A stretch of 64,000 nt of DNA from Escherichia phage BEU50. The DNA lies in the sequence record OM632671.1. One strand, written 5' to 3'. The notes beneath the pieces are model-generated. The model was not told the origin of the DNA, searched no databases, and saw only the letters and a program-made list of their open reading frames with translations. Numbering within the stretch: the first letter of the stretch is position 1; each line of letters starts with the position of its first letter. The translations under genes and the position numbers were made by a program. Shown piece by piece: positions 1 to 63,864 of the stretch.

Positions 1-161
1 TTAATCCTGATTTAGTTGTTGTACAGAAAAACTGGACCGAATTTTTATGCTACACTGAAGTGGTTTACGTTTACGAAAAACTCGGCGATGAAATGCCTAT
101 CTATGGTATCTTCCGTGAAATCACTGAAAACGGTACAACTTATTGGAAGGAAACTTACTAA
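1..161 (+). CDS. 3' end of unidentified upstream gene (partial; start lies outside window)
   Basis: Open frame from window edge to TAA at 159-161; stop overlaps next ATG (TAATG). Confidence 0.45.
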
Positions 162-574
162 TGGCTAATAAATTCCGCGTTAACTCATGGTACCAATTTA
201 AAGATAAACGTGCCCAAGAAGAGTTTATTAAAGACCACACTGATAATGGGATTTATGCACGACGTCTTGGCATGGAACCATTTAAAGTATTAGATGTTGA
301 CCATCTTGGTCGTCCTACTAAAATTGTGACATCTACTGGCATGGTTGGATACGCAACAGGCGGTGATATCCTTGATGAAAACTTTATCTGGCTCTCCACG
401 AATGAAGCAGAGTTCTTTGACGAAGTTGGAAATCCATATCAAGAGTCTAAAGAGCAAGATTCTGGTGAACTTGACGAATTGTCTGAATTTCCGGTGATGA
501 CGATTACTATCGAAAATAACGACCAGGCATGGTCTTTGTATCAAATGTTGAAAGCTCACTTTAAGGAACAATAA
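161..574 (+). CDS. hypothetical protein (137 aa)
   Basis: Same frame as ORF-track 143..574 (TTG start); ATG at 161 overlapping upstream stop preferred; no recognisable domain. Confidence 0.55.
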
Positions 575-753
575 TGCCGTTATACGACTATAAATGTCAA
601 TCTGAAGATTGTGGTCATGAATATGAAAAAATTAAAAGAATTTCTGAACGAGAAAACGATGTTTGCCCTGAATGTCATCGTCTGTCTACTCGTCGGGTTT
701 CTGCTCCTAAACATGTGAACGGTGGTTTTTACGACTTACTTAAGAAGGGTTAA
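574..753 (+). CDS. small zinc-ribbon protein, FmdB-like (59 aa)
   Basis: Not in ORF track (<60 aa); [18 protein letters not shown]...VCPECH with two Cys pairs; ATG overlaps preceding stop (TAATG). Confidence 0.5.
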   Translation: MPLYDYKCQSEDCGHEYEKIKRISERENDVCPECHRLSTRRVSAPKHVNGGFYDLLKKG

Positions 754-755
754 TT

Positions 756-1181
756 ATGGCTTTTAAAGGTTTTGAAGTTGGTAAGAAATATCGTATTATC
801 AAAGGACAAGAAGATAATTTCTTGAGAATTCTTAATACGACTGGTAAACGTCTTAATACTAATCTGCATACTACTTTATTGTCCAAAGATTTTATTGTGG
901 AAGAGATGATTGGTTACGGTGTTTCGATGATTGCTGTAGAAGCCGTAGGCGATTATGGCCGAACTATTCATAGTATGCAAGGTGATATTCTGCTTTATGG
1001 TGCAGAATTTAAATTCTTTGAAGAAGTTCCGGAACCAGATACAGCTGTCGATTTCAAAAAAGGCTCTATAGAATTTGTTGATGGTTCGGTGATCGTATCA
1101 GGCGATGTGGTCATTACAGTTAAAAGTGAACAAGGGCGTTTAGCTGCAATTGATGCACTTCAGAAAATTAAATTTAAATAA
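756..1181 (+). CDS. hypothetical protein (141 aa)
   Basis: ORF track; tightly packed upstream of gene 39; no recognisable domain. Confidence 0.55.
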   Translation: MAFKGFEVGKKYRIIKGQEDNFLRILNTTGKRLNTNLHTTLLSKDFIVEEMIGYGVSMIAVEAVGDYGRTIHSMQGDILLYGAEFKFFEEVPEPDTAVDFKKGSIEFVDGSVIVSGDVVITVKSEQGRLAAIDALQKIKFK

Positions 1182-1199
1182 GGGCTTAGGCCCTTTTTG
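1181..1199 (+). terminator. rho-independent terminator candidate
   Basis: AGGGC-TTAG-GCCCT hairpin followed by TTTTT immediately after stop at 1181. Confidence 0.5.
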
Positions 1200-1222
1200 C
1201 TTTAGATTTTGGATGATAGAAT
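1196..1222 (+). promoter_or_regulatory. MotA-type middle promoter candidate for gene 39
   Basis: TTTGCTTTA MotA-box-like element, 12-nt spacer, TAGAAT -10, about 22 nt before ATG 1245. Confidence 0.4.
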
Positions 1223-1244
1223 ACCTTCATAACGAGGAGACAAC

Positions 1245-3065
1245 ATGATTAAAAATGAAATTAAGGTATTGTCAGATGTAGAACATATTAAGAAACGTAG
1301 TGGTATGTATATTGGTTCTTCTGCTAAAGAAGCACATGAGCGTTTTTTGTTTGGTAAATATCAACAAGTTGAATATGTTCCTGGTCTGGTTAAATTAATC
1401 GATGAGATTATTGACAACTCGGTTGATGAAGCTATTCGTACATCATTTAAGTTTGCAAATAAAATTGATGTGCAAATTAAAAATAATCAAGTTTCGGTGG
1501 AAGATAACGGACGTGGTATTCCTCAAGGTTTAGTTACCGACCAAACGGGTGAACAAATTCCTGGGCCTGTAGCAGCCTGGACTATTCCAAAGGCTGGTGG
1601 TAACTTTGGTGATGACTCTGAACGCAAGACTGGTGGTATGAACGGTGTAGGGAGTAGTTTAACTAATATCTTCTCTACGTTGTTTACAGGCATCACGTCA
1701 GATGGCGAAAATGAAATCACTGTTAACTGTTCAAACGGAATGGAAAACAAATCATGGTCTTCTAAGAAATCTAAAGGTAAAGGCACTAAAGTAATCTTCA
1801 CTCCTGATTTCTCTTCATTTGAAGAGCATAATTTATCTCAAATTTATTTAGATATTACTTTAGACAGACTTCAAACATTGGCAGTCGTTTATCCTGATAT
1901 CAAGTTCACATTTAATGGTAAAAAGGTTGATGGTAATTTTAAACGATTTGCTAAACAATTTGGTGAAGATAACATCATTCAAGAAAATGATAAAGTCTCT
2001 ATAGCATTCACAACATCACCAGATGGCTTCCGTCATTTAACTTATGTGAATAACATCCATACTAAAAATGGTGGCCATCATGTTGAATGTGTAATGGATG
2101 ATATCTGTGAACATCTTTTGCCGGGTATTAAAAAGAAATATAAGGGTATTGAAGTCACTAAAGCTCGTGTTAAAGAATGCCTCACAATGTTGATGTTTAT
2201 TAGAGACATGAGCAACATGCGTTTTGATTCTCAGACTAAAGAACGTTTAACGTCAACGTATGGTGATATTCGTAATCATATCCAATTAGATGCTAAGAAA
2301 ATTGCTCAGGCACTTCTTAAAAACGAAGCCTTGATTATGCCTATTGTTGAAGCAGCATTAGCTCGTAAATTGGCAGCAGAAAAGGCTGCAGAAACTAAAG
2401 CAGCTAAAAAGGCGACTAAAGCTAAGGTTCATAAGCATATTAAAGCTAACCAATGTGGTAAAGATGCAGATACGACATTGTTTTTAACAGAAGGTGATTC
2501 GGCAATTGGTTATCTCATTGATGTTCGTGACCGTGAACTACACGGCGGATTCCCATTACGTGGTAAGGTGATGAATAGCTGGGGTATGTCATATGCTGAT
2601 ATGATGAAGAACAAAGAGCTCTTTGATATCTGTGCTATCACAGGTCTTATTCTTGGTGAAAAGGCAGAGAATACGAACTATCGTAATATTGCAATTATGA
2701 CCGATGCCGATCATGACGGTCTTGGAAGTATCTATCCAGCTTTGCTTGCTTTCTTTAGTAATTGGCCTGAATTGTTTGAACAAGGACGTATTCGCTTTGT
2801 TAAAACGCCTGTAATTATTGCACAAATTGGCAAAACTCAAAAATGGTTTTATACTGTAGCTGAGTATGAAGAAGCTAAAGATACACTGCCTAAGCATAGT
2901 ATTCGATACATCAAGGGATTGGGCTCACTTCAGCGAGATGAATATAAAGAAATGATTCAAAACCCTGTGTACGACGTAGTTAAACTTCCTGAAAATTGGA
3001 AAGAACTATTTGAAATGCTCATGGGTAACGACCCTGAACTCCGTAAAGATTGGATGCTAGGATAA
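1245..3065 (+). CDS. 39: DNA topoisomerase II large subunit, ATPase (uninterrupted 606-aa form)
   Basis: GHKL ATPase motifs DEIIDNSVDEA and EDNGRGIP; T-even gp39 family; 606 aa, i.e. not split into 39 and 60. Confidence 0.9.
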   Translation: MIKNEIKVLSDVEHIKKRSGMYIGSSAKEAHERFLFGKYQQVEYVPGLVKLIDEIIDNSVDEAIRTSFKFANKIDVQIKNNQVSVEDNGRGIPQGLVTDQTGEQIPGPVAAWTIPKAGGNFGDDSERKTGGMNGVGSSLTNIFSTLFTGITSDGENEITVNCSNGMENKSWSSKKSKGKGTKVIFTPDFSSFEEHNLSQIYLDITLDRLQTLAVVYPDIKFTFNGKKVDGNFKRFAKQFGEDNIIQENDKVSIAFTTSPDGFRHLTYVNNIHTKNGGHHVECVMDDICEHLLPGIKKKYKGIEVTKARVKECLTMLMFIRDMSNMRFDSQTKERLTSTYGDIRNHIQLDAKKIAQALLKNEALIMPIVEAALARKLAAEKAAETKAAKKATKAKVHKHIKANQCGKDADTTLFLTEGDSAIGYLIDVRDRELHGGFPLRGKVMNSWGMSYADMMKNKELFDICAITGLILGEKAENTNYRNIAIMTDADHDGLGSIYPALLAFFSNWPELFEQGRIRFVKTPVIIAQIGKTQKWFYTVAEYEEAKDTLPKHSIRYIKGLGSLQRDEYKEMIQNPVYDVVKLPENWKELFEMLMGNDPELRKDWMLG

Positions 3066-3862
3066 TGAATTATCGTAAAATTTATGATAAACTTATCGCT
3101 GCGGCTAAAAACCGCAGCATTATTCCTAATTATACTGAGACACATCATATATTGCCAAAATCTATGGGTGGGAGTAATGATAAATCAAATCTAGTTAAAA
3201 TGACCCCTAGAGAGCATTTTATCGCCCATTTATTGCTTTATAAAATTCATAAGAACCGTTCTATGCTTATGGCTATTAGAGCTTTTTACATGGGAGCTAG
3301 AAATTCTAGAGATTATGATTGGCTTAAACAAGAATTCTCTAAAGAGCACTCTAGATTTATGAAAGAATGGATTGCTAAAAACGGCAACCCATTTAAAGGT
3401 AAAAAACATACTAAAGCAACAAGAGAATTAATGTCACATATTGCTTCACAACGTATAGGCGAATTAAATCCATTTTATGGTAAAACTCATACGCAAGAAG
3501 CAATAGATAAAATAATACAGGCCAACAAGTTATCTTGGGAGAATGGGCGAAAAGCACCTGTAAAAACAAAAGAACACCAGGATAAAATAACTAAATCAAG
3601 AATGGAAACATTTAAAACAAAAGGATTTAAACCATACACTCCTAGGTCGGAAGAAACTAAAGCTAAGACTAGAGAGTTGTATAAATCTAAATATGAAAGA
3701 AGGCCTATAAGAATCACAAGTGTAAAAACAGGTGAAACTATTGATTTTAACTATCTTTATGAATTAAGAGAGTATTTAGATATAGGGTCTTCTAATATAT
3801 TGAAAGCATTAAATAATCCTAACAGAACCTGCAAAGGTTATAAAATGTGTTGGATGTCCTAA
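3065..3862 (+). CDS. HNH homing endonuclease (mob-type, free-standing)
   Basis: HNH motif HHILPKSMGGSNDKSNLV; repeated GK-HT helix motifs; ATG at 3065 overlaps gp39 stop; ORF-track start 3050 is TTG. Confidence 0.8.
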   Translation: MNYRKIYDKLIAAAKNRSIIPNYTETHHILPKSMGGSNDKSNLVKMTPREHFIAHLLLYKIHKNRSMLMAIRAFYMGARNSRDYDWLKQEFSKEHSRFMKEWIAKNGNPFKGKKHTKATRELMSHIASQRIGELNPFYGKTHTQEAIDKIIQANKLSWENGRKAPVKTKEHQDKITKSRMETFKTKGFKPYTPRSEETKAKTRELYKSKYERRPIRITSVKTGETIDFNYLYELREYLDIGSSNILKALNNPNRTCKGYKMCWMS

Positions 3863-3890
3863 GCTCCTTCGGGAGCTTCATTTTAATTTT
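3862..3890 (+). terminator. rho-independent terminator candidate
   Basis: AGCTCC-TTCG-GGAGCT hairpin followed by T-rich tract. Confidence 0.55.
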
Positions 3891-3904
3891 AATAAGGCTT
3901 AATT

Positions 3905-5005
3905 ATGAAAGTTATGTTTATCCCATCTCGTGCAGTCCCATTTAATCCTGACCGTGTACAAGGTGGTCTTGAAGCGGTTCATTTGAACGTGTTGAAATAT
4001 TTAGTTTCTATCGGTGCCGATATTGATTATATCGGCTTTGATAATGACACGTTTGGTGACTGGAAAGTTACACACCATCCTGTTGGTCATCTGACTAAAT
4101 TCAGTCTAGGTATGAGTTATACTATGGCTCGTAAGATTGTTGAACTAGCCGGCATCCATGAATACGATTTTGTTGTTACTATGGAACCGACTAAACTAAC
4201 CGTTCAGGCAATTAAAGACGCAGGTCTCTCTAAAGTTCATAAGAATTTTATGGCAACACCATTTGAACCAGTATCTCGTGGCATTGTTCAAATTTGGGAC
4301 CAGACTATTCAAATTCATAAGAATGGCGGTAAGAGTTATGCTCCTACTAAAGCCTTCCGTGAATTTGAACGCAAATATTGTTATATGACTTCAGGTCTGA
4401 CTGACAAAATCGATTATGATTATTGGCGAGCAAATCCGTTGTTTGAAGCCGAAGATTATCCGGTTATTTGTTTGACTGAAAAGCCAGAAGTTCTCCCGGC
4501 AACTGATTTGATTATTAGTGCTCAACGTTATGACACTAAGATGCGTCGCACTGATGTTGCTCTTGAAGCAATTAAAGCACTAGGCGAAAATGGTGTAGGA
4601 TACTGTCCTAGTAAATGGGCACCACCAGCTAAATATCCTGTTATTATTGATGCTCCACACAGTGAAATCATGGAACGTCTTAAAACAGCTAAAGCACTTA
4701 TTAATACGTGTCCTGACACAGGTACGGTAGAGAATAGTTCTATTGAAGCCATCTCTAAAGGTGTCCCTGTAATCCAGTTAGTTTTTAAGGATTATCCTCA
4801 TGCGACATTTGAATACGACCCAGATACTGTGCGTGTAGAAATTGATTCCTCTACTCCTAAGAAAGAAGTAGTTGCGCTTTACACAAAAGCTGTATTAGAA
4901 TTCACTGACACATACGAAGCTCGAGTTAAACGTGCTGAAGCAGTATGGAAGAAGTATAATCGAGATGCAGTTGTTGCGATGTGGGATAAAATCTTCACAG
5001 CGTAA
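3905..5005 (+). CDS. hypothetical protein, possible GT-B-fold glycosyltransferase (366 aa)
   Basis: ORF is solid; function weak: N-terminal MKVMFIPSR...GGLE and C-terminal ENSSIEAISKGVPVI resemble GT4-type motifs. Confidence 0.6.
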   Translation: MKVMFIPSRAVPFNPDRVQGGLEAVHLNVLKYLVSIGADIDYIGFDNDTFGDWKVTHHPVGHLTKFSLGMSYTMARKIVELAGIHEYDFVVTMEPTKLTVQAIKDAGLSKVHKNFMATPFEPVSRGIVQIWDQTIQIHKNGGKSYAPTKAFREFERKYCYMTSGLTDKIDYDYWRANPLFEAEDYPVICLTEKPEVLPATDLIISAQRYDTKMRRTDVALEAIKALGENGVGYCPSKWAPPAKYPVIIDAPHSEIMERLKTAKALINTCPDTGTVENSSIEAISKGVPVIQLVFKDYPHATFEYDPDTVRVEIDSSTPKKEVVALYTKAVLEFTDTYEARVKRAEAVWKKYNRDAVVAMWDKIFTA

Positions 5006-5097
5006 ATCCTGAATAGCCTGAGGCACTATTACACATAAGATGATAGATTATATGGTCTTTAGTAATAGTGCCCTAGGAATCTACTGAAGAGAATATT

Positions 5098-5298
5098 ATG
5101 AGAACATATAACGTGGACTTGGAACTTTTTGATAAAGCAGTGCTCCGGGAATTCCGGCTTATCCAAAGATTTTTTGATATCGAATCAGCAGAGTCCTTTA
5201 AAGAACGCTTTAAAGAAATTCGATATAAAATACAAACCGATACAGCTACTAAAGAAGAACTTCTTGAAGTAGCAGAAATTTTTAAACGTAACTTGTGA
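5098..5298 (+). CDS. hypothetical protein (66 aa)
   Basis: ORF track; immediately upstream of rIIA. Confidence 0.45.
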   Translation: MRTYNVDLELFDKAVLREFRLIQRFFDIESAESFKERFKEIRYKIQTDTATKEELLEVAEIFKRNL

Positions 5299-5310
5299 TG
5301 AGAGAAAAAC

Positions 5311-7368
5311 ATGATTATCGAAACGGCTAAAGAAACGATTATTGGTTCTGGTGGTAAGAGCACAGCATTCACTATTCAAGGCAATAGCAAAGTTTATAAG
5401 ATTTTGTCTAATGACCTTTATACAAACAAAGAATTGGCTTGTGTACGTGAATTAATCACAAACTGTATCGATGGACAAATTCTTAATGGTTGCACTGATA
5501 AGTTTATTGTTCAGGCTCCAGGTCGTTTAGACCCACGTTTTGTAGTTCGAGACTTTGGTCCTGGTATGAGTGATTTCACCATTCGAGGTAATGACGAAGA
5601 GCCAGGAATCTATAACTCATATTTTGCTTCAACTAAAACATCGAGTAATGATTTCATTGGTGGATTCGGACTCGGCTCTAAAGCTCCATTAGCATATACT
5701 GATACGTTTAACATTACTTCTTATCATAATGGTGAAGTTCGTGGTTATGTAATTTATCAAGATGACAGTGGTCCACAAATTAAGCCAACCTTTGTAGATA
5801 AGATGGGCCCTGATGACCGTACGGGTGTAGAAGTAGTTGTGCCTGTTAACCCGGAAGATTTTGAAAAGTTCGCATCTGAAATTGCGTATGTTATGCGTCC
5901 TCTCGGCGATATTGCAGAAGTTCGTGGTGTTAAAGATATCAAATACTTCCCGGAATTCGATGATGTTTATTTAGCCAAGGAAGCTCCATGGGGTGAACGT
6001 GGTAATATCATGGCTGTTTATGGTGGTATTGTATATCCAATCGGAAGTGTTATTAAAGAACAAACATGGATGATGACGCGATGCACTACAGCTTATATCA
6101 AATTCCCTATGGGTGAACTAGATGTAGCCCCGTCTCGTGAAGCATTGTCATTTGATAAACGTACAGTAGCAAATATTCATAAACGTGTTGCAGAAATTGA
6201 TGCAAAATTATTTGCTGAAGATTCTAAGAAATGGATTGATTGTGAATATCCACGTCATGTATTCCGTGAAATCGATTCTCTTGGTTACTCTGCTCGTAAA
6301 TACATGGAAAAAGCCGGTTCTAATATTGAATCACTGAAATATTCTAAAGAACAACTAACTTATTCTGAGTTGTACAAACGTTTTAAAATGGGACCTGAAT
6401 GGTGCAACCTTGGCGTTGTATATGATATCGTTTCAGATCCACGACTTCGTCGTATTCGTGAAAGCGGAAGCTCGTCTGCAACTATTTCAATTAATAGCCT
6501 GCTAGGTATTAGTCGTAAGCATATTGATATTGTTATTGACGATGTGAAAGGCCGCGTACCAATGATGCGTGCTCTGAACGATGCTTTGACTTCCACCGAT
6601 GCATCAACACTCGTTGATAAGGTTCCTTCCGGACGGGGTAGTAGCGTATTATTCATTAACCCGGAAGATGAAGTTGCAATGAAACTTCTGGAACGATTAA
6701 AGGTTATTTTCGCTGGTGATAGCCTTAAATTTTATAAGACCTCTGAAATTCTTGCATTAGTTAAACCATGGATTGAAGTTAAAGAACGTTCATCGCAGCC
6801 TCGTCCTAAATCCCCAAGTGCTCATCGGTTCTTTAAGAATGAAAACGATGTTTGGGTATCAGAAGATCTCTTTATTCCGGCCGGTAAAGCTGATGAGATT
6901 CAAGGTTATGTTGTAATTCGTAATCGTTCTAACGCTGAATGTCTTGACGCAGATAAAGGTTGGTTGAACTATGATTCTAATTTCTTGACTCGTATTGCTG
7001 ATTTGTCAGGTATTAAAGAGTTCACTGTAGTCCGTCCACAGATTGCTAAGAAAGTTCGTAAACTTGGTGAAGTAGAATGCTTGTTCGAAAAATCAATTAA
7101 TGACTATATTACGCTAATTGATAAAGTGGATTATGATGAGTATGTATCACCAAGTCGTAGAGCACAGCCTTATTTGAATCATATTACTCGTAACGAAGAG
7201 CTTAACTTCCTTAGTAAGTATTTTAGCTCTAAGAACAAAGAAATCAGTAAAGACTTTGCAAAACTCTCAACAGTAAATAATCGCTGGGGATGGAATCGAT
7301 TCGCAGGTGCTGATAACAGAGACCTGAACAGGAAGTTAGAATTGTGCTTAAAGAGGACTCTTTTGTAG
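5311..7368 (+). CDS. rIIA: rIIA membrane-associated protein with GHKL ATPase domain
   Basis: ELITNCIDG and RDFGPGM GHKL boxes; N-terminus typical of T-even rIIA; 685 aa (T4 rIIA recalled as about 725 aa). Confidence 0.85.
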
Positions 7369-13549: not shown

Positions 13550-13780
13550 GTGAGTGAGTCGAAGAGAATCAATATGAAACGATTAGTATTAGAAGTTAGT
13601 CCGCTTTTTGGTGAATTGGCTATAGAAAAAGTAAATAACATGTATCGTTTGACGCAAGAAGACGATATGCTATATTTTACGCCTAGTGAAATCATTCATT
13701 TAACCCAAATTGAATATCCTTATACTGATAAAATAGTAAGTATCAATGATGAGCACAAAATTCATTGCTCGTTTGATTGA
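13550..13780 (+). CDS. hypothetical protein (76 aa, GTG start)
   Basis: ORF track; AAGGAG upstream. Confidence 0.45.
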   Translation: MSESKRINMKRLVLEVSPLFGELAIEKVNNMYRLTQEDDMLYFTPSEIIHLTQIEYPYTDKIVSINDEHKIHCSFD

Positions 13781-13870
13781 AGTTGAAGCCCAAATTGCAG
13801 AACACACCAAATTGTTAAAAGCTCTTAATGCAAAAGCAAATGGTTTACGTAATGCTATTGAGGTATTGAA

Positions 13871-14185
13871 ATGAAAAAGCGTCTATTAGAAGACATTGCA
13901 GCTTCAAGTAATTCCAGTTTAATTAAAATTATTATGGCCGGTGAAGAAGACGATCTGGAAATGCGTGGAAAGATTTATGGTTGTGATGATTATAGCAGCC
14001 CTATTAATTGGGATTCTGTAATGGTCATGGTTGAACGTCGCGAAAGGGCTTCTAAAAACGTTCCTAATTGCCCTGAATGTGGAACTGAACAGGTGCAATT
14101 AGTCCATTGGCAGACTAATAATCTTCGTTATAAATGTCGCCATTGTAAACACCGATTTGACCGAGAAGAAAATGACAAAGCGTAA
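13871..14185 (+). CDS. zinc-ribbon hypothetical protein (104 aa)
   Basis: CPECGTEQ ... CRHCKHRF four-Cys pattern. Confidence 0.55.
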
Positions 14186-14414
14186 AGAATATATGGAGAC
14201 CGCCGAAAAGGCAGTCCGTGAATTAGCAATAGCTTATTATAATGAACACGGTAAATTTCCTGATAGATACAGCGTGCTTAAATCTGCTTTAACTCGTTCA
14301 TATAAAAATATGCTATCAGAAGTAAGTGATATTATATACAAACATAAAGAACAAACGGGCCAAAGTCTTGATTACGACGAGACTTTTAAACAAGTACTAG
14401 GAATTAAGGAATAA
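14172..14414 (+). CDS. hypothetical protein
   Basis: ORF-track frame 14157..14414 (TTG) trimmed to first ATG. Confidence 0.4.
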
Positions 14415-14415
14415 T

Positions 14416-14679
14416 ATGTTTAAAGTATATGGTTATGATAGCAACATCCATAAATGTGTGTATTGCGATAATGCAAAACGTCTTTTGACCGTGAAGAAAC
14501 AGCCGTTTGAATTTATCAACATTATGCCGGAAAAAGGTGTTTTTGATGATGAGAAAATCGCTGAGCTTCTGACTAAACTAGGTCGTGATACTCAAATCGG
14601 CTTAACAATGCCTCAGGTATTTGCTCCTGATGGAAGTCATATTGGTGGATTTGACCAATTGCGGGAATACTTTAAATGA
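14416..14679 (+). CDS. nrdC: glutaredoxin/thioredoxin (T4 NrdC type)
   Basis: 87 aa, CVYC redox motif; matches recalled T4 NrdC. Confidence 0.9.
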   Translation: MFKVYGYDSNIHKCVYCDNAKRLLTVKKQPFEFINIMPEKGVFDDEKIAELLTKLGRDTQIGLTMPQVFAPDGSHIGGFDQLREYFK

Positions 14680-14891
14680 TTCTCGAAGGAACTGATTATA
14701 TCCATGATTACCGCGGAAGCGCGGTATATGTAGGTGATGAAGTTGCAGTTTACTACGGGTATGGAACTTTGATGACAGCCAAGGTTATTCAAATTAAAAA
14801 TAATCGTGCTAAACTCGAAGTTTATTATTCTAACGGCGAAAAGTCTATTTCTAAGTGGAAATACGGCGATTGTATGGTCAAACTGGGGTAA
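14676..14891 (+). CDS. hypothetical protein (71 aa)
   Basis: ORF track; overlaps nrdC stop. Confidence 0.5.
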   Translation: MILEGTDYIHDYRGSAVYVGDEVAVYYGYGTLMTAKVIQIKNNRAKLEVYYSNGEKSISKWKYGDCMVKLG

Positions 14892-14893
14892 AT

Positions 14894-15064
14894 ATGATTT
14901 ACGATATTAGTGCAGCAAGAGCTCCATCAATGGTTGCTATTCCAGCTGAAGAATTAGATCGTCTTCATAAAATTGAAGAACTTCTGTGGGAAATTGAATC
15001 TGATTTGCCATCAGGATTAGAATCCTGGATTGATTATGAAGAACTTAATAAGCTTCGGGGTTAA
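14894..15064 (+). CDS. hypothetical protein (56 aa)
   Basis: ORF-track frame trimmed to ATG 14894 following upstream stop. Confidence 0.4.
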   Translation: MIYDISAARAPSMVAIPAEELDRLHKIEELLWEIESDLPSGLESWIDYEELNKLRG

Positions 15065-15186
15065 ACCCTGGTGGGCGGCTAGATGGGAAACTGTAGAGCC
15101 AGAGCCGGAAGAACCGGTTTACACTGATGAAGAAACAGTATATAATGAACCAACGATAAATGACTTAATTGATATGGAGATGGGAC

Positions 15187-15672
15187 ATGATTACAGTAGA
15201 TAAGTGGTTTAGAATTAATCGTGTTGATACAGGGCTATGTAATTACTGGCCGGAACTTAGTGCAGGTACTGTCTTTAAAGTTCGTGAACTTGCAAAAGAA
15301 TGTGAAGATGATATAGAACCTGATACTGGAATTATTGAAATTGAACTTTCTGATGGAAAGATTATTAACATCTATGATAAGCCAATTACGTATTGGTGCT
15401 TGTGGAATACTGAATCCGTTGAAAATGGCGAAATTGAAGAAGTTGTAGAGAGAACTAGCCAAGATGCTCAGAAGCCTAAAGCCGCTTTTCAAGGTGAACG
15501 TATTTCATACGCATTAGCTAAATTAGCTGCACAAGAAAATAACGATGGTTATGAAGGAAATTTAATGCAAGCTGCCGCAGAGTACATTGAATGGCTTGAA
15601 ACTCAAATTTCTTTTTCTGACCAAATGATTCGGCAATATAAGCGATTGCATCAAATGTTTTACAATACTTGA
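15187..15672 (+). CDS. pin: hypothetical protein, possibly protease inhibitor Pin (161 aa)
   Basis: ORF-track frame trimmed to first ATG gives 161 aa, the T4 Pin length; position between nrdC and gene 49. Confidence 0.45.
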   Translation: MITVDKWFRINRVDTGLCNYWPELSAGTVFKVRELAKECEDDIEPDTGIIEIELSDGKIINIYDKPITYWCLWNTESVENGEIEEVVERTSQDAQKPKAAFQGERISYALAKLAAQENNDGYEGNLMQAAAEYIEWLETQISFSDQMIRQYKRLHQMFYNT

Positions 15673-15708
15673 AAAAACTCAAAATTCTTTTTCTGACAAG
15701 GCATTTTA

Positions 15709-15885
15709 ATGAAAACCGAATTGGTTTATACTGAAAAGTTAAATGGCGGTAAGGTTTGGAAACTTTTTATTAAAGGACATTCTACGGACCCTCATATGAC
15801 CACTTGCGTAGGAACCTATTCTCGTCCTACTAAAAAGATGATTCGACAGTATAAACGATTGCATCGAATGTTTTACAATACTTAA
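15709..15885 (+). CDS. small hypothetical protein (58 aa) sharing its C-terminus with upstream gene
   Basis: Not in ORF track; ends ...MIRQYKRLHRMFYNT, near-duplicate of the last 15 aa of the 15187..15672 product. Confidence 0.35.
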   Translation: MKTELVYTEKLNGGKVWKLFIKGHSTDPHMTTCVGTYSRPTKKMIRQYKRLHRMFYNT

Positions 15886-15925
15886 ATAATAAATACCCTT
15901 ATCTATTTAAGGTAAGGGTTTTATT

Positions 15926-16399
15926 ATGTTATTGACTGGCAAATTATACAAAGAAGAAAAACAAAAATTTTATAATGTACAAAACGGTAAATGCTTAATT
16001 TGCCAACGAGAACTAAATCCTGATGTTCAAGCTAATCACCTTGACCATGACCATGAATTAAATGGACCAAAAGCAGGAAAGGTACGTGGATTGCTTTGTA
16101 ATCTCTGCAATGCTGCAGAAGGTCAAATGAAGCACAAATTTAATCGTTCTGGCTTAAAGGGTCAAGGTGTTGATTATCTTGAATGGTTAGAAAATTTACT
16201 TACTTATTTAAAATCCGATTACACCCAAAATAATATTCACCCTAACTTTGTTGGAGATAAATCAAAGGAATTTTCTCGTTTAGGAAAAGAGGAAATGATG
16301 GCCGAGATGCTTCAAAGTGGATTTGAATATAATGAATCTGACACCAAAACACAATTAATAGCTTCATTTAAGAAGCAGCTTAGAAAGAGTTTAAAATGA
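15926..16399 (+). CDS. 49: endonuclease VII (Holliday junction resolvase)
   Basis: 157 aa; zinc-binding CLIC...C..C; matches T4 gp49 family. Confidence 0.88.
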   Translation: MLLTGKLYKEEKQKFYNVQNGKCLICQRELNPDVQANHLDHDHELNGPKAGKVRGLLCNLCNAAEGQMKHKFNRSGLKGQGVDYLEWLENLLTYLKSDYTQNNIHPNFVGDKSKEFSRLGKEEMMAEMLQSGFEYNESDTKTQLIASFKKQLRKSLK

Positions 16400-17217
16400 A
16401 TGTAGTATATAAACTATCATTTATTAATAGAATTAATGCTAAAACCCCACCATATTATTACATTGGAAGTAAAACCAATTGCACTTTTGATGGAACGAAT
16501 ATTATTGATAAAAATGGTAAATTTTATTATTCGTCTTCGTCATCTTCTGAATTTCAAAAAGCCTTATTGAAAGAAACGCCGAAAGTTGAAATATTATATT
16601 TTCAATTAGTCGGAGATGAACAAATAACTAGCATTGAAGCTGAATTTCAAAAGAATATAGAAAAAGATGTATGGAATAAAGAGTATTTTAATTTAGCATA
16701 TGCTGATGGCAAATTTACGACATATGGTATTTCTCCTTCTAAAGAAACTAGAGAAAAGCAATCAATAACCATGATTAAAAGAAATCGTAATAAAGGCAAA
16801 AATCATGGATTTTATGGAAAGCATCATACTAATTTAGCTAGAAAGAAAATATCAGAAGCTTCTAAAAAATACTGGAAAGAAAATCCACATCGTGGATTTT
16901 CGCATACAAAGGAAGCTAAAATTAAAATTGGAATTTCATCTTCTATCAGGCATAAAGGAAGTGGAAATCCGATGTATGGTGTAAAACCTTGGAAAACTCC
17001 GAGCGCAATTAAATCTGGTACTTGTATATTATGGTTAAAATACGCAGAAATTTTATATGATTATTTAAGTCCAGATTTTAAAAGTAAATCATCTATTTTT
17101 GCGGATTTAAACTTACCGAAATTTAGAATTGATAATTTCATCAAAAGGTTTAAAATGGGTTGGAACCCATATTTAGACGAAGAATTTCAAAAGGATAAAT
17201 TAGAATTATGTCTTTAG
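16396..17217 (+). CDS. GIY-YIG homing endonuclease (seg-like, free-standing)
   Basis: N-terminal VYKL...PYYYIGS GIY-YIG module; downstream basic helix repeats; start and stop overlap neighbouring genes. Confidence 0.75.
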   Translation: MNVVYKLSFINRINAKTPPYYYIGSKTNCTFDGTNIIDKNGKFYYSSSSSSEFQKALLKETPKVEILYFQLVGDEQITSIEAEFQKNIEKDVWNKEYFNLAYADGKFTTYGISPSKETREKQSITMIKRNRNKGKNHGFYGKHHTNLARKKISEASKKYWKENPHRGFSHTKEAKIKIGISSSIRHKGSGNPMYGVKPWKTPSAIKSGTCILWLKYAEILYDYLSPDFKSKSSIFADLNLPKFRIDNFIKRFKMGWNPYLDEEFQKDKLELCL

Positions 17218-18205
17218 AAAAAGATGTTTTAAATTTTATTTCAAATAAAGATAAAGAATTAAATACAGAAAACGCCAACAAAGATTCTCGCGTCTTTCCA
17301 ACAAAAAGAGATTTAATGGCCGGTATTGTTTCTAAACATATCGCTTGTCGTATTCTTCCAAGTCATATTGTAAATGCCCATAATGTTGGATTAATTCATT
17401 TTCATGATTTAGATTACAGTATATCATTGCCTTTTACTAATTGCTGTTTAGTAGATTTAAAAGGAATGCTTGAGAACGGGTTTAAGCTCGGTAATGCACA
17501 GATTGAAACTCCTAAATCAATCGGTGTTGCTACTGCAATTATGGCACAAATTACTGCACAGGTTGCTTCTCACCAATATGGCGGAACTACATTTGCTAAT
17601 GTCGATAAAGTACTTTCTCCTTATGTTAAACGCACCTATGCAAAACATATCGAAGACGCAGAAAAATGGCAAATCGCCGATGCGTTAAATTATGCTCAAT
17701 CTAAAACAGAAAAAGACGTATACGATGCATTCCAAGCTTATGAATATGAAGTAAATACTCTCTTTAGTTCAAACGGACAGACTCCTTTTGTAACAATTAC
17801 ATTTGGTACAGGAACTGACTGGACTGAACGAATGATTCAGAAAGCAATTCTGAAAAATCGTATTAAAGGTCTTGGTCGTGATGGGATAACTCCTATTTTC
17901 CCTAAGCTTGTTATGTTTGTTGAAGAAGGTGTTAATCTTTATAAAGACGATCCGAACTATGATATTAAGCAGCTTGCTCTAGAGTGTGCAAGCAAAAGAA
18001 TGTATCCTGATATTATTTCAGCTAAGAACAATAAAGCTATCACTGGTTCATCTGTTCCTGTTTCTCCAATGGGTTGCCGTAGTTTCTTGGGCGTATGGAA
18101 AGATTCGACTGGTAATGAAATTCTTGATGGACGTAATAATCTTGGCGTTGTAACACTGAATCTTCCTCGCATCGCGTTAGATTCTTATATTGGAACACAG
18201 TTCAA
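17208..18205 (+). pseudogene. nrdD: anaerobic ribonucleotide reductase NrdD, 5' portion only (truncated near codon 333)
   Basis: N-terminal two-thirds of class III RNR; frame then runs into reverse complement of gp37 start; no glycyl radical C-terminus. Confidence 0.8.
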
Positions 18206-18340
18206 TCCTGAGTCATCTTTTGTGAAAATTGTTTTATCTTTTAAGTTTATAGCCAATTCACCTTCGGCTAATACTGAAGCAGCAGGACGTTGACCTGCAG
18301 TTTTGCTTCTTTTAAATTGTATTTGTTTTAAAGTAGCCAT
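18206..18340 (-). pseudogene. 37: distal long tail fibre gp37, N-terminal 44-codon fragment
   Basis: Minus-strand [45 protein letters not shown] matches T4 gp37 N-terminus, then diverges and stops within 6 codons. Confidence 0.7.
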
Positions 18341-28443: not shown

Positions 28444-29118
28444 ATGAGCACAGTTTTTAATACAAACCCAGTTGATGTTTTAAAAGAACCTATGTTTTTT
28501 GGTTCAGGTCTTGGTATTGCGCGTTATGATATTCAACGCCATAAAGTTTTTGAAGATTTGACCGAAAAGCAATTGTCATTTTTCTGGCGTCCTGAAGAAG
28601 TAAACTTAATGATGGATGCTGCACAGTTTAATAAGCTTCCTCAGTATCAGCAAAATATTTTTACTAATAACCTGAAGTATCAATCACTTTTGGATAGCAT
28701 TCAGGGTCGTGCGCCATCTGCTGTACTTATGTCATTAATTTCAGACCCGAGTCTTGATACATGGGTTGCTACATGGACTTTTAGTGAAACTATTCACAGC
28801 CGTTCATATACACATATCATGCGAAATCTTTATACTGATCCATCGAAGGTATTTGATGAGATTGTATTAGATGAAGCTATTATGAAACGTGCTGAATCTA
28901 TCGGTCGCTATTATGATGATGTTCTGATTAAAACCCGTGAATGGGAAAATGCTAAAGAATTTGTAGAACTAGCTAAAGAATCTCCTGATGCTGTCTTTCG
29001 TTTAAACCGAGCTATTAAACAAGAAGCCGAAGCTAAACGTGCTTTAATGAAATCTCTTTACCTCTGTTTGCACGTTATTAATGCCTTAGAAGCATTCGTT
29101 TTTATGTATCTTTTGCGT
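28444..29118 (+). CDS. nrdB: ribonucleotide reductase small subunit, exon 1 (apparent -1 frameshift near 29094)
   Basis: R2 di-iron family; frame gives ...NALEA then off-frame, while the conserved IRFYVSFA continues in the -1 frame up to the 5' splice site. Confidence 0.8.
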
Positions 29119-29228
29119 AAAATGCGCCTTTAAACGGTAACGTTTATCGAAAACTCCTTTAATTGCTGGAAAGTCCTTTATAGGAAAACTAGCAGCCAAG
29201 GTTTTGCTTGCACCTTTAATTAGTATAA

Positions 29229-29236
29229 TATAAATA
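29229..29236 (+). promoter_or_regulatory. late promoter-like TATAAATA upstream of intron ORF
   Basis: TATAAATA about 28 nt before the intron ORF start. Confidence 0.4.
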
Positions 29237-29263
29237 TGGTTATACTTTTAAGAGGATGCACAA

Positions 29264-30073
29264 TTGAACTATAGAAAAATTTGGATAGATGCTAACGGAC
29301 CTATACCTAAAGATTCTGATGGAAGAACATACGAAATCCATCATAAAGACGGTAACCGTGAAAATAATGATTTAGATAATTTGATGTGCCTTTCTATACA
29401 GGAACATTATGATATACATTTAGCTCAAAAAGATTACCAGGCTTGTCATGCTATAAAGCTTAGAATGAAATATTCTCCTGAAGAAATTTCTGAATTAGCT
29501 TCTAAAGCCGCAAAATCTAGAGAAATCCAGATTTTTAATATCCCTGAAGTACGAGCTAAAAATATTGCCTCTATTAAATCTAAGATAGAAAATGGTACAT
29601 TTCATCTTTTAGATGGTGAAATACAGCGTAAATCTAATTTAAATAGAGTTGCATTAGGTATACATAATTTTCAACAAGCTGAGCATATTGCAAAAGTTAA
29701 AGAACGCAATATTGCAGCTATAAAAGAAGGTACTCATGTATTTTGCGGTGGTAAAATGCAGTCAGAAACTCAATCAAAACGGGTAAATGACGGTTCACAT
29801 CATTTCTTATCAGAAGACCATAAGAAAAGAACATCAGCAAAAACATTAGAAATGGTTAAGAACGGGACCCATCCTGCACAAAAAGAAATCACATGTGATT
29901 TTTGTGGTCACATTGGTAAAGGTCCTGGATTTTATCTAAAACATAATGACAGATGTAAATTAAATCCAAATAGAATTCAATTGAATTGTCCATATTGTGA
30001 TAAGAAAGATTTATCACCATCAACATATAAACGATGGCACGGCGACAATTGCAAAACAAGGTTCAACGACTAG
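29264..30073 (+). CDS. I-TevIII: HNH homing endonuclease, intron-encoded (I-TevIII-like, full length 269 aa)
   Basis: HNH motif HHKDGNRENNDLDNL plus C-terminal Cys4 zinc finger; TTG start codon in ORF track. Confidence 0.8.
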   Translation: MNYRKIWIDANGPIPKDSDGRTYEIHHKDGNRENNDLDNLMCLSIQEHYDIHLAQKDYQACHAIKLRMKYSPEEISELASKAAKSREIQIFNIPEVRAKNIASIKSKIENGTFHLLDGEIQRKSNLNRVALGIHNFQQAEHIAKVKERNIAAIKEGTHVFCGGKMQSETQSKRVNDGSHHFLSEDHKKRTSAKTLEMVKNGTHPAQKEITCDFCGHIGKGPGFYLKHNDRCKLNPNRIQLNCPYCDKKDLSPSTYKRWHGDNCKTRFND

Positions 30074-30208
30074 TCTTCGGACGTAGGGTCAAGCGACTCG
30101 AAATGGGGAGAATCCCTCCGGGATTGTGATATAGTCTGGACTGCATGGTAACATGCAGCAGTTCATAAGAGAACGGGTTGAGAATTAGCGAGCTCAATCG
30201 AACATACG

Positions 30209-30711
30209 GTACCTTTAACTTCCATAAAAATATGGAAATTATGGAAGGTAATGCAAAGATTATGAAGTTCATTGCTCGTGACGAACAACTCCACCTCAAG
30301 GGTACTCAGTACATTATCCGTCAACTTCAATCTGGTACTGATGGTGATGAGTGGGTTCAAATTGCTAAAGAATGTGAACAAGAAGCAGTTGACATTTTTA
30401 TGGAAGTAAATAGTCAAGAGAAGGAATGGGCTGCACACCTCTTTAAAGACGGTACATGTCCAGGTATCAATACGCAGAGTATGTGTGCTTTTGTTGATTA
30501 CTTGACTGTGTCTCGTATGAAACAGTGTGGTTTGCCATGCCCAATCACTGATGCTCCGACCAAGCATCCGTATCCTTGGATTCGTGAATATCTGAACTCT
30601 GATTTAGTTCAAGCCGCTCCTCAGGAAGTTGAAATCAGTTCTTATCTTGTCGCACAAATTGATAATGATGTAGACCAAAATGTAATCAATTCATACAAAA
30701 AATATTTCTAA
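30209..30711 (+). CDS. nrdB: ribonucleotide reductase small subunit, exon 2
   Basis: Begins GT-ACC-TTT (..CTFNFHKNMEIMEGNAKI); ORF-track 30178..30711 includes intron-derived leader. Confidence 0.8.
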
Positions 30712-57260: not shown

Positions 57261-58004
57261 TTACCTTAAACGGCCTTTAACATATCCATCTGGGATGGAT
57301 AACGGATTTACTAATTTATTTATAGCCCCGTTATTTACCCATATTCTGCCGGTGGTCGTAGGTTTTACTTCACAGCCCTTTCTAGATTTTCTATTAAGTT
57401 GGACCATTCCTTTTACAAATCCTTCAGGCATCGGGTCCTCGGCTGATATAAATCTGTTTTCTTTACCGTTGTTAACACAAATTTTATTTAGAGTTGTAGG
57501 ATTTTTAGGACCTTTAATTTTATCAATCTTTGGCTTTCCTGTACCATACCGCCCGTGGCATGTTGGGTCTTCAGAGTATCGACGTTTATTTGTTTCAGAT
57601 AGTTTTCTTTTTGTTTCTTCCGATCTGTGTTTTCCTAAAAGATTATGACCAAGCCTCTTTATTCGTTCTTTAGCACTATTAGACATTTTAGTCTTATCAG
57701 CTTCGGTGTACTTATACCTTCCACCTTCACCGCCTTGGCGCATATTATAATACTCGTTAGATTTGACCAAATCCTCTGTTACTAACTGAGCTTCGTATTC
57801 TAAAGCTTCAGCGGAAGTTTCAAATTGTTTAATTATTGAACGTTTAAATGATTCTTCTCCGTATTTTTTGATAGCGCGATTTAAGGCAACACCTGACCCT
57901 AGATACGAATCATTTAAATTTTCTGTAGAATGTTTGCCAATGTACTTTTTACCATTGATTAAATTTACGGTCTCATAAACAAAGTGATACATACTCTTTT
58001 CCAT
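57261..58004 (-). CDS. segE: GIY-YIG homing endonuclease (segE-like)
   Basis: MYHFVYETVNLINGKKYIGKHS GIY-YIG module; start trimmed to Met 14 of ORF-track frame. Confidence 0.7.
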   Translation of the reverse strand: MEKSMYHFVYETVNLINGKKYIGKHSTENLNDSYLGSGVALNRAIKKYGEESFKRSIIKQFETSAEALEYEAQLVTEDLVKSNEYYNMRQGGEGGRYKYTEADKTKMSNSAKERIKRLGHNLLGKHRSEETKRKLSETNKRRYSEDPTCHGRYGTGKPKIDKIKGPKNPTTLNKICVNNGKENRFISAEDPMPEGFVKGMVQLNRKSRKGCEVKPTTTGRIWVNNGAINKLVNPLSIPDGYVKGRLR

Positions 58005-58041
58005 GTAATAAATATAGTTATATTTATAATGAGGAAATATC

Positions 58042-58710
58042 ATGATCGATAAAGACTATATTGAAGAGTTACGTGCTCTTTCTGATAAAAAGGAAGCCAA
58101 AGCTAAACTGTTTGAATATGCGGAACAATTTGGCATTAGTGTTAAGAAAACAAAATCATTCGATAATATTGTTATTGATATCGAAGAAGCTCTTAACGCA
58201 CTGGCTGATGAACCATTACCTGAAACTGATGGATTATCTATCACTGATTTAATTACTGCCGCAGATGATGTGGACGGTGTTAATTTCACCAACGAAGAAG
58301 TTAAAGAAGAAGCTATTCTGTTGTTTGATTCTCCAACAGAACAAGTTGAAGTATTAGAAGTTGTCGAACAAGAAAAAGAATTCGACCATGATAAATTCAA
58401 AGAAGCAATTACTCAGGTTGTTGAATCTGAAAAAGAGCCTGAGACAGAGGTAAATAAAGAAGTAAAATTTGTTCTGCCTGAAAATTTTAGTCCTACACTC
58501 ATTAAATTAGGCAAAGGCCTAGGATATGTTACTGTTCCTTGGTGGATTTATCAATGGATCGCTGAAACCCCAGATTGGAAATCTCGCCCAACTAGTTTTG
58601 TGCATGCTTCTGCTCACCAAACATTATTTAGCTTAATTTATTATATTAATCGCGATGGATCAGTTCTAATTCGTGAAACTCGTAATTCTTCTTTCGTAAC
58701 ATTAAAATAA
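58042..58710 (+). CDS. inh: hypothetical acidic protein, possibly Inh (prohead protease inhibitor)
   Basis: 222 aa, acidic; position between segE and hoc as in T4. Confidence 0.5.
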   Translation: MIDKDYIEELRALSDKKEAKAKLFEYAEQFGISVKKTKSFDNIVIDIEEALNALADEPLPETDGLSITDLITAADDVDGVNFTNEEVKEEAILLFDSPTEQVEVLEVVEQEKEFDHDKFKEAITQVVESEKEPETEVNKEVKFVLPENFSPTLIKLGKGLGYVTVPWWIYQWIAETPDWKSRPTSFVHASAHQTLFSLIYYINRDGSVLIRETRNSSFVTLK

Positions 58711-63204: not shown

Positions 63205-63864
63205 ATGAATTATTTAATTTACAAAATAACCAATCTCATTAATAACAAGATTTATGTTGGAGCCCATGCCACTACAGATGTTAACGATTCTTATATGGGT
63301 TCCGGGGTTAACATAGTAAAATCCATAAAGAAATACGGCTTAGAGAATTTTAAAAAGGAAATCCTTTTCAATTTCGAAACATCTGAAGAGATGTATGCTA
63401 AGGAAGCCGAACTAGTTGACGAGGCTTTTGTCATGAGAACAGATACTTATAATGCAGCCTTAGGCGGCAAGGGTAATCCTGTTATAGTAGCTTTACAGGA
63501 ACCTGGGTATCGTGAGATGTTATCCAAAAAGACAAAAGCTGGTATGACTGAAGAAGTTCGGGCCAAAATATCTAAAAAGAAATTAGGTTCTAAAGAATCT
63601 AAAGAACATCGAGAAAACAAATCTATAGCAAATAAAAAGTTTTATAAAAATAGAGATTCTCATCTTAAAGGTAGAAAACTATCAGAAGAGCATAAAGCAA
63701 AAATTAGAAAGAATTCTAATAAAGGTAAGAAATTTGTATTTGTGGATATTTCTATTAAAGGTCATGAATTTAACCACTACGATTACGCTGCCGAATTCTT
63801 TAACGTATCCGCAAAAACTATAAGAAATTGGATTAATGAACGCGATGATTGTTTTAAGCTATAG
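63205..63864 (+). CDS. segD: GIY-YIG homing endonuclease (segD-like)
   Basis: MNYLIYKITNLINNKIYVGAH GIY-YIG module; basic C-terminal DNA-binding region. Confidence 0.75.
   Translation: MNYLIYKITNLINNKIYVGAHATTDVNDSYMGSGVNIVKSIKKYGLENFKKEILFNFETSEEMYAKEAELVDEAFVMRTDTYNAALGGKGNPVIVALQEPGYREMLSKKTKAGMTEEVRAKISKKKLGSKESKEHRENKSIANKKFYKNRDSHLKGRKLSEEHKAKIRKNSNKGKKFVFVDISIKGHEFNHYDYAAEFFNVSAKTIRNWINERDDCFKL

Follow-up and report, generated by a model that had tools for sequence, protein, structure and literature searches.

The 64,000-nucleotide (nt) stretch of Escherichia phage BEU50 analysed here (record OM632671.1, hereafter the window) carries a 273-amino-acid (aa) open reading frame (ORF) at 16396-17217, wedged between gene 49 and nrdD. 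We consider it very probable that this ORF is a free-standing ('intronless') homing endonuclease gene (HEG) encoding a GIY-YIG enzyme of the SegG clade; its nuclease activity, target, cut position and biased inheritance are things we infer from sequence. The HEG is carried by about 7% of sequenced relatives, always at 49|nrdD, so that the locus is polymorphic for its presence at a single, fixed position flanked by conserved genes. The three genes concerned are as follows.

15926..16399, + strand: gene 49 (endonuclease VII), 157 aa, the upstream flank (Pfam PF02945 and PF09124).
16396..17217, + strand: the HEG ORF, 273 aa, with an ATG start and a TAG stop at 17215-17217.
17208..18206, + strand: nrdD, intron-less, about 333 codons in the window (Pfam NRDD), ended by a breakpoint at 18206.

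The original prediction had placed the start of this ORF in the ATGA that ends gene 49, given it 273 aa and put its end 10 nt inside nrdD, and a reading of the sequence together with the Pfam matches of the flanks bears out each point. The gene 49 stop TGA lies at 16397-16399, the ATGA at 16396-16399 combines this stop with the HEG start, and the HEG 3' end overlaps nrdD by exactly 10 nt (17208-17217). Identical 4-nt and 10-nt overlaps are annotated in the HEG-carrying genomes of Shinka, phage 55 and JK42. Both flanks are well defined: the gene 49 product matches Endonuclease_7 (1e-21) and Endonuc-dimeris (1e-32) and its gene shares 97.9% nucleotide identity with T4 gene 49, and nrdD matches NRDD at 2.8e-87 over model positions 1-293 of 562, with its start at 17208 backed by this match and by alignment of the N-terminus with T4, T6 and other NrdD proteins. 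The HEG ORF is not a chance ORF, because it matches PHROG 7504 'homing endonuclease' at 1.4e-33, has 49 full-length copies, and differs between copies mostly at synonymous codon positions. The 4.4-kb segment that holds the HEG (13762-18206) is collinear with Shinka over its full length, and the finding is therefore unaffected by the patchwork structure of the window described below.

The distribution of the HEG among relatives supports the view, also taken in the original prediction, that a seg-like free-standing homing endonuclease sits here between conserved genes. In T4, gene 49 and nrdD overlap directly by ATGA with nothing between them. Using a 401-nt query spanning this T4 junction, and counting records in which at least 80% of it was covered, we found the empty junction in 629 of the 733 matching T4-like phage records, including T6, RB27, RB5, RB51, Mosigvirus SF and Gaprivervirus VR20 and P479. 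The occupied arrangement, scored as at least 80% coverage of a 1.6-kb query, was present in 48 records. Similarly, a tblastn search that covered 50,697 phage records returned full-length copies with at least 90% aa identity in 49 of them, always at the endonuclease VII/nrdD features. Across T-even relatives, then, the comparison of the 49-nrdD region gives empty alleles as the majority state, and the finding that would have spoken against an insertion, the same gene at the same site in every relative, was not made.

To follow the HEG and its flanks separately, we set three occupied alleles (the window, Tequatrovirus Shinka and Mosigvirus phage 55) against six empty alleles and took the identity for each 60-nt bin. 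Gene 49 tracks genus: that of the window shares 98% identity with T4 and Shinka and 81% with phage 55, whose own gene 49 is 96.6% identical to that of Mosigvirus SF. In contrast, the HEG ignores genus, the window copy being 99.4% identical to that of phage 55 and 96.8% to that of Mosigvirus JK42, whose gene 49 shares 80.4% identity with the window's. These comparisons indicate horizontal spread that is incongruent with the phylogeny of the host genomes. The codon differences between the window and JK42 copies of the HEG (16 synonymous and 9 nonsynonymous, dN/dS roughly 0.2), together with the intact state of all four copies examined locally, indicate that the HEG is under purifying selection.

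The same comparison revealed that the HEG does not travel alone.

17208..17450, + strand: HEG-linked variant nrdD 5' block, about 240 nt (bin comparison and megablast).

Over the first ~240 nt of nrdD, the occupied alleles of the two genera are 97-100% identical to one another and only 53-78% identical to all six empty alleles, whereas the empty alleles, drawn from three genera, share 92-100% mutual identity. Past nt 240, identity returns to ~90-98% in all comparisons, and this right boundary is identical in both genera. On the other side, every comparison gave 92-98% identity for the final 60 nt of gene 49, which show no HEG-linked differences and would serve as the left homology arm. From this haplotype and its boundaries it follows that the moving unit is the HEG together with a foreign nrdD 5' segment. 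A megablast search with the variant block alone matched exactly 49 records. Among these, Shinka, phage 55 and JK42 were checked and carry the HEG, and the block appears to be strictly linked to it; of the records inspected, one, OLB35, is without the HEG and is best read as a deletion derivative. In intronless homing, cleavage takes place in a conserved gene beside that of the enzyme, and co-conversion carries over the resistant allele of the donor (PMC2988022); by analogy, the variant nrdD block is presumed to be a cleavage-resistant allele. Its protein sequence (FPTKRD, GLIH, HDLDY) resembles the nrdD of a distant lineage represented by the metagenomic contig L015, which suggests that the HEG cassette originated in a lineage of that kind.

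Two further alleles appear to record what happens to the HEG after it arrives. The two lowest-ranked of the 49 block-positive records, JK42 and OLB35, were inspected individually; JK42 carries the HEG and Mosigvirus OLB35 (MH992122) is without it. The OLB35 nrdD start (MH992122 1580-1640) reads ATGAATGTAGTATATAAACTAT, in which HEG codons 1-7 (MNVVYKL) run in frame into the variant nrdD block (…FISNKDKELN…). This fusion is unique in the phage collection, and its sequence identifies it as a probable deletion footprint that keeps the presumably resistant nrdD allele. The second allele is that of L015 (Logan SRR27536177_201122, locus 1718-4712), a 4.7-kb contig from a more distant T4-like phage, in which gene 49 is followed by an nrdD 5' stub of 55 codons, then a HEG homologue with a frameshift and finally a complete nrdD. 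The homologue has 55-66% aa identity and a frameshift near codon 48, and by its sequence it is apparently a decayed copy. The stub suggests an insertion or repair junction ~165 nt into nrdD, a point inside one of the two bins where the linked nrdD block diverges most; as to the cleavage site, this offers only a hint.

Within the protein, three regions can be distinguished.

16396..16740, + strand: N-terminal catalytic domain of SegG type (GIY-YIG), aa 1-115, assigned by SegG homology, motifs and fold matches.
16774..16983, + strand: linker with two NUMOD3 DNA-binding motifs, aa ~127-196 (Pfam NUMOD3 6e-7, in two stretches).
16984..17214, + strand: C-terminal domain resembling the SegG C-terminus, aa 197-273 (blastp; low AlphaFold2 (AF2) confidence).

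Beyond the near-identical copies, the closest relative found by tblastn was T4 SegG (39.8% identity over aa 1-126, E 2e-17). Pairwise blastp gave significant similarity in both terminal domains, with 39.8% identity between the N-domain and SegG aa 1-124 (E 8e-28) and 28% between aa 197-272 and SegG 134-208 (E 1.5e-4). The top non-self structure matches in BFVD were likewise SegG homologues (gp32.1), at 1e-9 to 1e-12. The HEG protein is thus placed by its sequence as a SegG-clade GIY-YIG paralogue, and SegG itself is an experimentally active free-standing GIY-YIG homing endonuclease with gene 32 as its target (PMC2988022, Table 1). Its annotation in GenBank is already 'homing endonuclease', and for JK42 'SegG homing endonuclease'. 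In a multiple alignment with the T4 Seg proteins, the NUMOD3 linker faces a gap in SegG, which has no such region. A profile search of PDB sequences matched the NUMOD3 region to the I-TevI DNA-binding domain 1I3J (E 1.6e-4) and gave no match to the I-TevI catalytic domain. The C-terminal domain is presumed, from its sequence, to be a sequence-specific DNA-binding module.

A 273-aa paralogue (P0003) was also found at 4001-4822 of a metagenomic contig (L016, ENA ERZ13617658 NODE_202). It shares only the N-terminal catalytic domain, at 56% identity, and sits between gp5 and a gp5.1-like/PAAR gene, which is the segC position in T4. Its make-up suggests that the catalytic domain has been shuffled onto other binding domains and sites.

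The residues expected of a GIY-YIG enzyme were sought in two alignments, one of the HEG protein with T4 SegA-G, I-TevI and I-TevII, and one of 22 SegG-clade members from metagenomes. Both strands were identified, the candidate 'GIY' as V4-Y5(-K6) and the 'YIG' as Y22-I23-G24, with a spacing of 17 residues compared to the canonical ~10-11, the extra residues forming a helix insert. In the first alignment Y22, G24, S46 and N99 are invariant and E83 nearly so. In the second, Y5, R12, P19, Y22, G24, S25, K26, N28, Y44, S47, E81, F98, N99 and A103 are conserved in at least 90% of the members, and the nearly invariant Glu is E81. The metal-binding Glu and the downstream Asn are therefore both found: E81/E83 lie within one or two columns of I-TevI E75, and N99, invariant in both alignments, aligns with N90. 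R12, which is conserved and specific to the clade, lies between the GIY and YIG strands. The AF2 model, with predicted local distance difference test values of 92-97 for aa 1-100, places R12 on a short helix between these strands, and a beta-hairpin-like insert replaces the Arg-bearing helix of I-TevI; on this model R12 may substitute for the canonical catalytic Arg. BFVD matches annotated as GIY-YIG, GIY-YIG_SegABCDEFG and GrpIintron_endo had E values of ~1e-3 and probabilities of 0.96-1.0, and NCBIfam TIGR01453 'group I intron endonuclease' was matched at E 2.5e-4, below its cut-off.

The GIY-YIG label given in the original prediction is thus supported by SegG homology, motif conservation and weak-to-moderate profile and fold matches. 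Pfam reports NUMOD3 only, with no GIY-YIG (PF01541) match even at E<=10. However, T4 SegG and SegF give no match either, whereas SegA and I-TevI do, and the missing match is therefore probably a property of the model. No residue of the HEG protein or of SegG aligns with the catalytic Arg27 of I-TevI, either in the multiple alignment or by hhalign. We considered whether this marks an inactive enzyme and rejected it as decisive, since the active SegG is without the residue too, as are T4 SegA, C, D and E in the same alignment. The hhalign comparison of clade N-domains with canonical GIY-YIG domains reached a probability of only 76% (E 2e-5, with YIG pairing with YVG), and in a Foldseek search of the PDB, I-TevI 1LN0 ranked second with a target-normalised template modelling (TM) score of 0.56 and a non-significant E of 4.3. 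These four results on family and fold weigh against our interpretation, as do four others. The literature searched for an endonuclease at 49/nrdD, main reviews included, describes none there and holds no cleavage, target or cross data on the HEG protein. The OLB35 GenBank record is flagged 'UNVERIFIED', the frameshift in L015 could be an assembly error, and the linked nrdD block could be a single import by ordinary recombination, not the product of nuclease-driven co-conversion.

Expression of the HEG appears to depend on its surroundings, and three signals are relevant.

16383..16389, + strand: Shine-Dalgarno-like GAAAGAG, 6 nt before the HEG ATG (sequence reading).
16395..16425, + strand: predicted RNA hairpin in which the HEG AUG pairs with codons 6-10 (folding of 16350-16450).
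17191..17195, + strand: AAGGA Shine-Dalgarno for nrdD, inside the HEG 3' end, 12 nt before the ATG at 17208.

In T4, the nrdD ATG is preceded by the identical upstream sequence (the GAAAGAG region), and the HEG therefore uses the Shine-Dalgarno-like element and ATG that belong to nrdD at the empty site. A sigma-70 promoter scan around the HEG scored no better than shuffled sequence (12 vs 10.2), and the exact T4 late-promoter box TATAAATA is absent from 15000-18300. With both scans empty, the HEG fits the 'promoter-less cassette' class to which segC, segF and segG belong (PMC2988022). The 101-nt fold of 16350-16450 has a predicted energy of -16.9 kcal/mol (z -3.3, with none of 200 shuffles as stable), and the hairpin is tentatively a possible translational attenuator. 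T4 endonuclease genes are translationally down-regulated, a pattern that the predicted hairpin would fit.

Together these observations suggest how the HEG might be expressed and spread. It would have no promoter of its own and would be read from the nrdC-49-nrdD polycistronic message, having taken over the ribosome-binding site and ATG used by nrdD in empty-site phages; the hairpin at its AUG would possibly dampen its translation, and the new Shine-Dalgarno of nrdD would be supplied from within the HEG 3' end. In a mixed infection with a HEG-less T4-like phage, the protein would bind through its NUMOD3 and C-terminal modules and cut the genome of its rival within or close to the highly conserved ~240 nt at the nrdD 5' end. 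Phage recombination would then repair the break using the HEG-carrying genome as the template, copying in the HEG along with its divergent, presumably uncuttable nrdD 5' block.

A different account of the same pattern, which we judge unlikely, is that the HEG is a passenger on a cassette imported once from a divergent T4-like phage and spread by ordinary recombination, its own nuclease function perhaps lost. Recombination among T4-like phages is indeed very frequent, and between genera the gene 49 3' end and nrdD are 90-97% conserved, which is enough for them to act as homology arms; the absence of an Arg aligned with I-TevI R27 and of a Pfam GIY-YIG match, as well as the restriction of the HEG to ~7% of records, would also suit an inert passenger. 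However, a HEG that is 99.4% identical across genera while the flanking gene 49 differs by 19% points to recent, repeated movement relative to the background. Furthermore, the full-length matches are all at least 90% identical and the four local copies are intact, with mostly synonymous change, and the clade to which the active SegG belongs (PMC2988022) has kept its GIY, YIG, Glu and Asn positions.

We give even less credence to the idea that the HEG has been domesticated and now acts mainly as a phage weapon or regulator and not as a selfish element, possible roles being marker exclusion through nrdD cuts, control of nrdD expression, or recombination and amplification of the SegB kind. There are precedents, in that T4 homing endonucleases exclude T2 markers (PMC2988022, PMC2993671) and SegB is reported to promote amplification of anti-defence loci (PMC13096335). 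The HEG also supplies the ribosome-binding site of nrdD and has its AUG covered by the predicted hairpin, which would wire it into nrdD expression. Yet OLB35 lost the HEG and kept nrdD in frame, and most records have the empty arrangement, which evidently works without impairment. Exclusion is, moreover, a by-product of homing and not an alternative to it, and the sequence offers nothing that would set domestication apart from plain homing. That the protein is not a GIY-YIG enzyme at all, and instead binds DNA through NUMOD3 and has an N-terminal domain of some unrelated kind, is hardly credible: Pfam does find NUMOD3 alone and the Foldseek PDB search gave no significant match, but the proven nucleases SegG and SegF are equally Pfam-negative, I-TevI and SegA-E can be aligned to it at the YIG, Glu and Asn columns, and there are BFVD matches to GIY-YIG/GrpIintron_endo entries (E ~1e-3, probability at least 0.96) along with the TM score of 0.56 to 1LN0.

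Free-standing homing by a SegG-clade enzyme remains our preferred explanation. A more ambitious version of it, which taken as a whole we regard as doubtful, would join several claims, namely that the full HEG life cycle is on view at 49/nrdD across T4-type and RB69-type genera, that the cut lies near nrdD nt ~165, and that R12 replaces the catalytic Arg. This cycle would run from invasion, through linkage to an imported immune nrdD 5' 'exon', to in-frame loss (OLB35) and to frameshift decay downstream of a duplicated nrdD stub (L015), and the SegG clade would, going by the structural models, be a structurally distinct GIY-YIG variant in which the Arg-bearing helix has been replaced.

The neighbourhood of the HEG has some further features. 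Upstream, a 52-nt direct repeat (88% identical) of the pin 3' end occurs at 15625-15676 and 15838-15889, flanking a 213-nt insert that encodes a 58-aa ORF (15709-15885), the C-terminus of which repeats the last 15 residues of Pin; the pin/49 gap also holds small ORFs in SF, JK45, VR20 and P479. Two collinear short repeats (16 nt at 94% and 20 nt at 85%) relate 16642-16677 to 17182-17234 and so tie the middle of the HEG (EFQKNIEKDVW) to a stretch covering the HEG 3' end and the start of nrdD (EFQKD…/SLEKDVL). This pair is not conserved in the L015 homologue and is due either to chance or to an unexplained local conversion. Downstream, at 17743-17746, nrdD of the window is without the group I intron and I-TevII gene of T4 (T4 45850 to 44814 is skipped). 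With an intron-less nrdD bearing the HEG at its 5' end, the HEG and the intron element therefore occupy nrdD independently.

The original prediction also listed four further homing-type endonuclease ORFs in the window, all of which exist and can each be assigned to a family.

3050-3862: MobA-like ORF, full-length, 270 aa (HNH motif by eye and a NUMOD3 match).
29264-30073: HNH_3, I-TevIII-like ORF, at the nrdB intron position.
57261-58043, - strand: SegE-like GIY-YIG ORF.
63205-63864: SegD-like ORF.

The claim that their density is unusually high fell away, however, as five in 64 kb (1 per 12.8 kb) equals the density in T4, which has 15 homing endonuclease genes in 169 kb, amounting to ~11% of its genome (PMC2988022), and the window is a patchwork besides. 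The MobA-like gene follows the ORF for the topoisomerase II large subunit (both in 1245-3862), overlapping its last 16 nt and not interrupting it; this subunit is encoded by one 606-aa ORF in which T4 genes 39 and 60 are fused, with no 50-nt bypass gap. The nrdB gene (28444-30711) is split at the T4 intron position by ~1 kb containing a 269-aa I-TevIII-like HNH ORF, which is full-length in the window and truncated in T4. An Rfam search of the whole window, the nrdB intron region included, yielded no family (and so no group I intron) at gathering score.

The window as a whole is not collinear with any known phage genome in the phage collection. Against T4 it runs 6.4→1.3, 63.8→57.6, 49.0→44.4, 156.7→149.1 and 143.1→106.4 kb, with four abrupt breakpoints at 7346/7347, 13762-13764, 18206/18207 and 25726/25727 that truncate rIIA, nrdD (after ~333 codons), gene 37 (after ~45 codons) and gene 59. 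At the nucleotide level the junctions at 13762/13764, 18206 and 25726 contain no Ns and share at most 1-2 nt; the 7346 junction was placed by BLAST end-points only. Positions 1-7346 are 98% identical to Mosigvirus-type phages such as phi25-307 (and a20), the match stopping exactly at 7346, the 7.3-28.4 kb region is 91-98% T4-like, and the 44-64 kb region is 98% identical to KAW3E185, JK45 and AV116. The 18206 junction is present in no record of the phage collection or IMG/VR. From its sequence, the window looks like a chimeric assembly or a set of concatenated fragments and not a viable genome, with segments of at least two phage types in a non-circular order. Since it is not collinear with any known genome, a count made over the window cannot be taken as that of a single real genome.

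When T4-like phages infect the same cell, free-standing homing endonucleases bring about localised gene conversion and marker exclusion between them, and they therefore shape which alleles travel between phages, therapy phages included. A review from 2010 found no convincing evidence of movement between phage types and noted that RB69 lacks such elements (PMC2993671); in contrast, the HEG is a clean natural example of recent transfer between T4-type and RB69-type genera. Defined HEG-carrying, empty, deleted and decayed alleles are now on hand for 49/nrdD. The comparative evidence for mobility is unusually clean, and it leaves the understanding of such elements unchanged.

Among known systems, the HEG most closely resembles T4 segG, which lies between genes 59 and 32. 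SegG (gp32.1) is 40% identical to the HEG protein in the N-domain and 28% in the C-terminal domain, and the two have in common the clade-specific R12, PPYYYIGSK, Y44/S47, E81 and FN99. Each gene is a promoter-less cassette that lies tightly between conserved genes and relies on the host message for its expression; SegG makes its cut some distance away, in the adjacent gene, with co-conversion of flanks (PMC2988022). They differ in site (49/nrdD, not 59/32), in presumed target (nrdD, not gene 32) and in the ~70-aa insert with two NUMOD3 motifs that makes the HEG protein 273 aa long compared to 211 aa for SegG. T4 SegF, encoded between 56 and soc, is similarly free-standing, cuts an adjacent conserved gene with co-conversion and is variable in T-even phages (PMC2988022). 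It also escapes the Pfam GIY-YIG model, as the HEG protein does, but has only ~16% identity to it in the multiple alignment, along with another site and another target. I-TevI of the td intron (1LN0/1MK0, 1I3J) shares the aligned YIG, Glu and Asn positions and the modular catalytic-linker-binding layout, with NUMOD3 matching its DNA-binding domain; in contrast, it is intron-encoded, has an R27-bearing helix after the YIG and contains a zinc finger. Ribonucleotide reductase genes are favoured targets of homing endonucleases (PMC2988022), and I-TevII (in the nrdD intron), mobC and SegH (at the nrdD/nrdG junction) occupy the same neighbourhood as the HEG. However, these are different proteins, located inside nrdD or at its other end, whereas the HEG lies at the nrdD 5' end. 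Ordinary for its phage group, the HEG is best described as a new SegG-clade gene, so far uncharacterised, in a new location, 49/nrdD.

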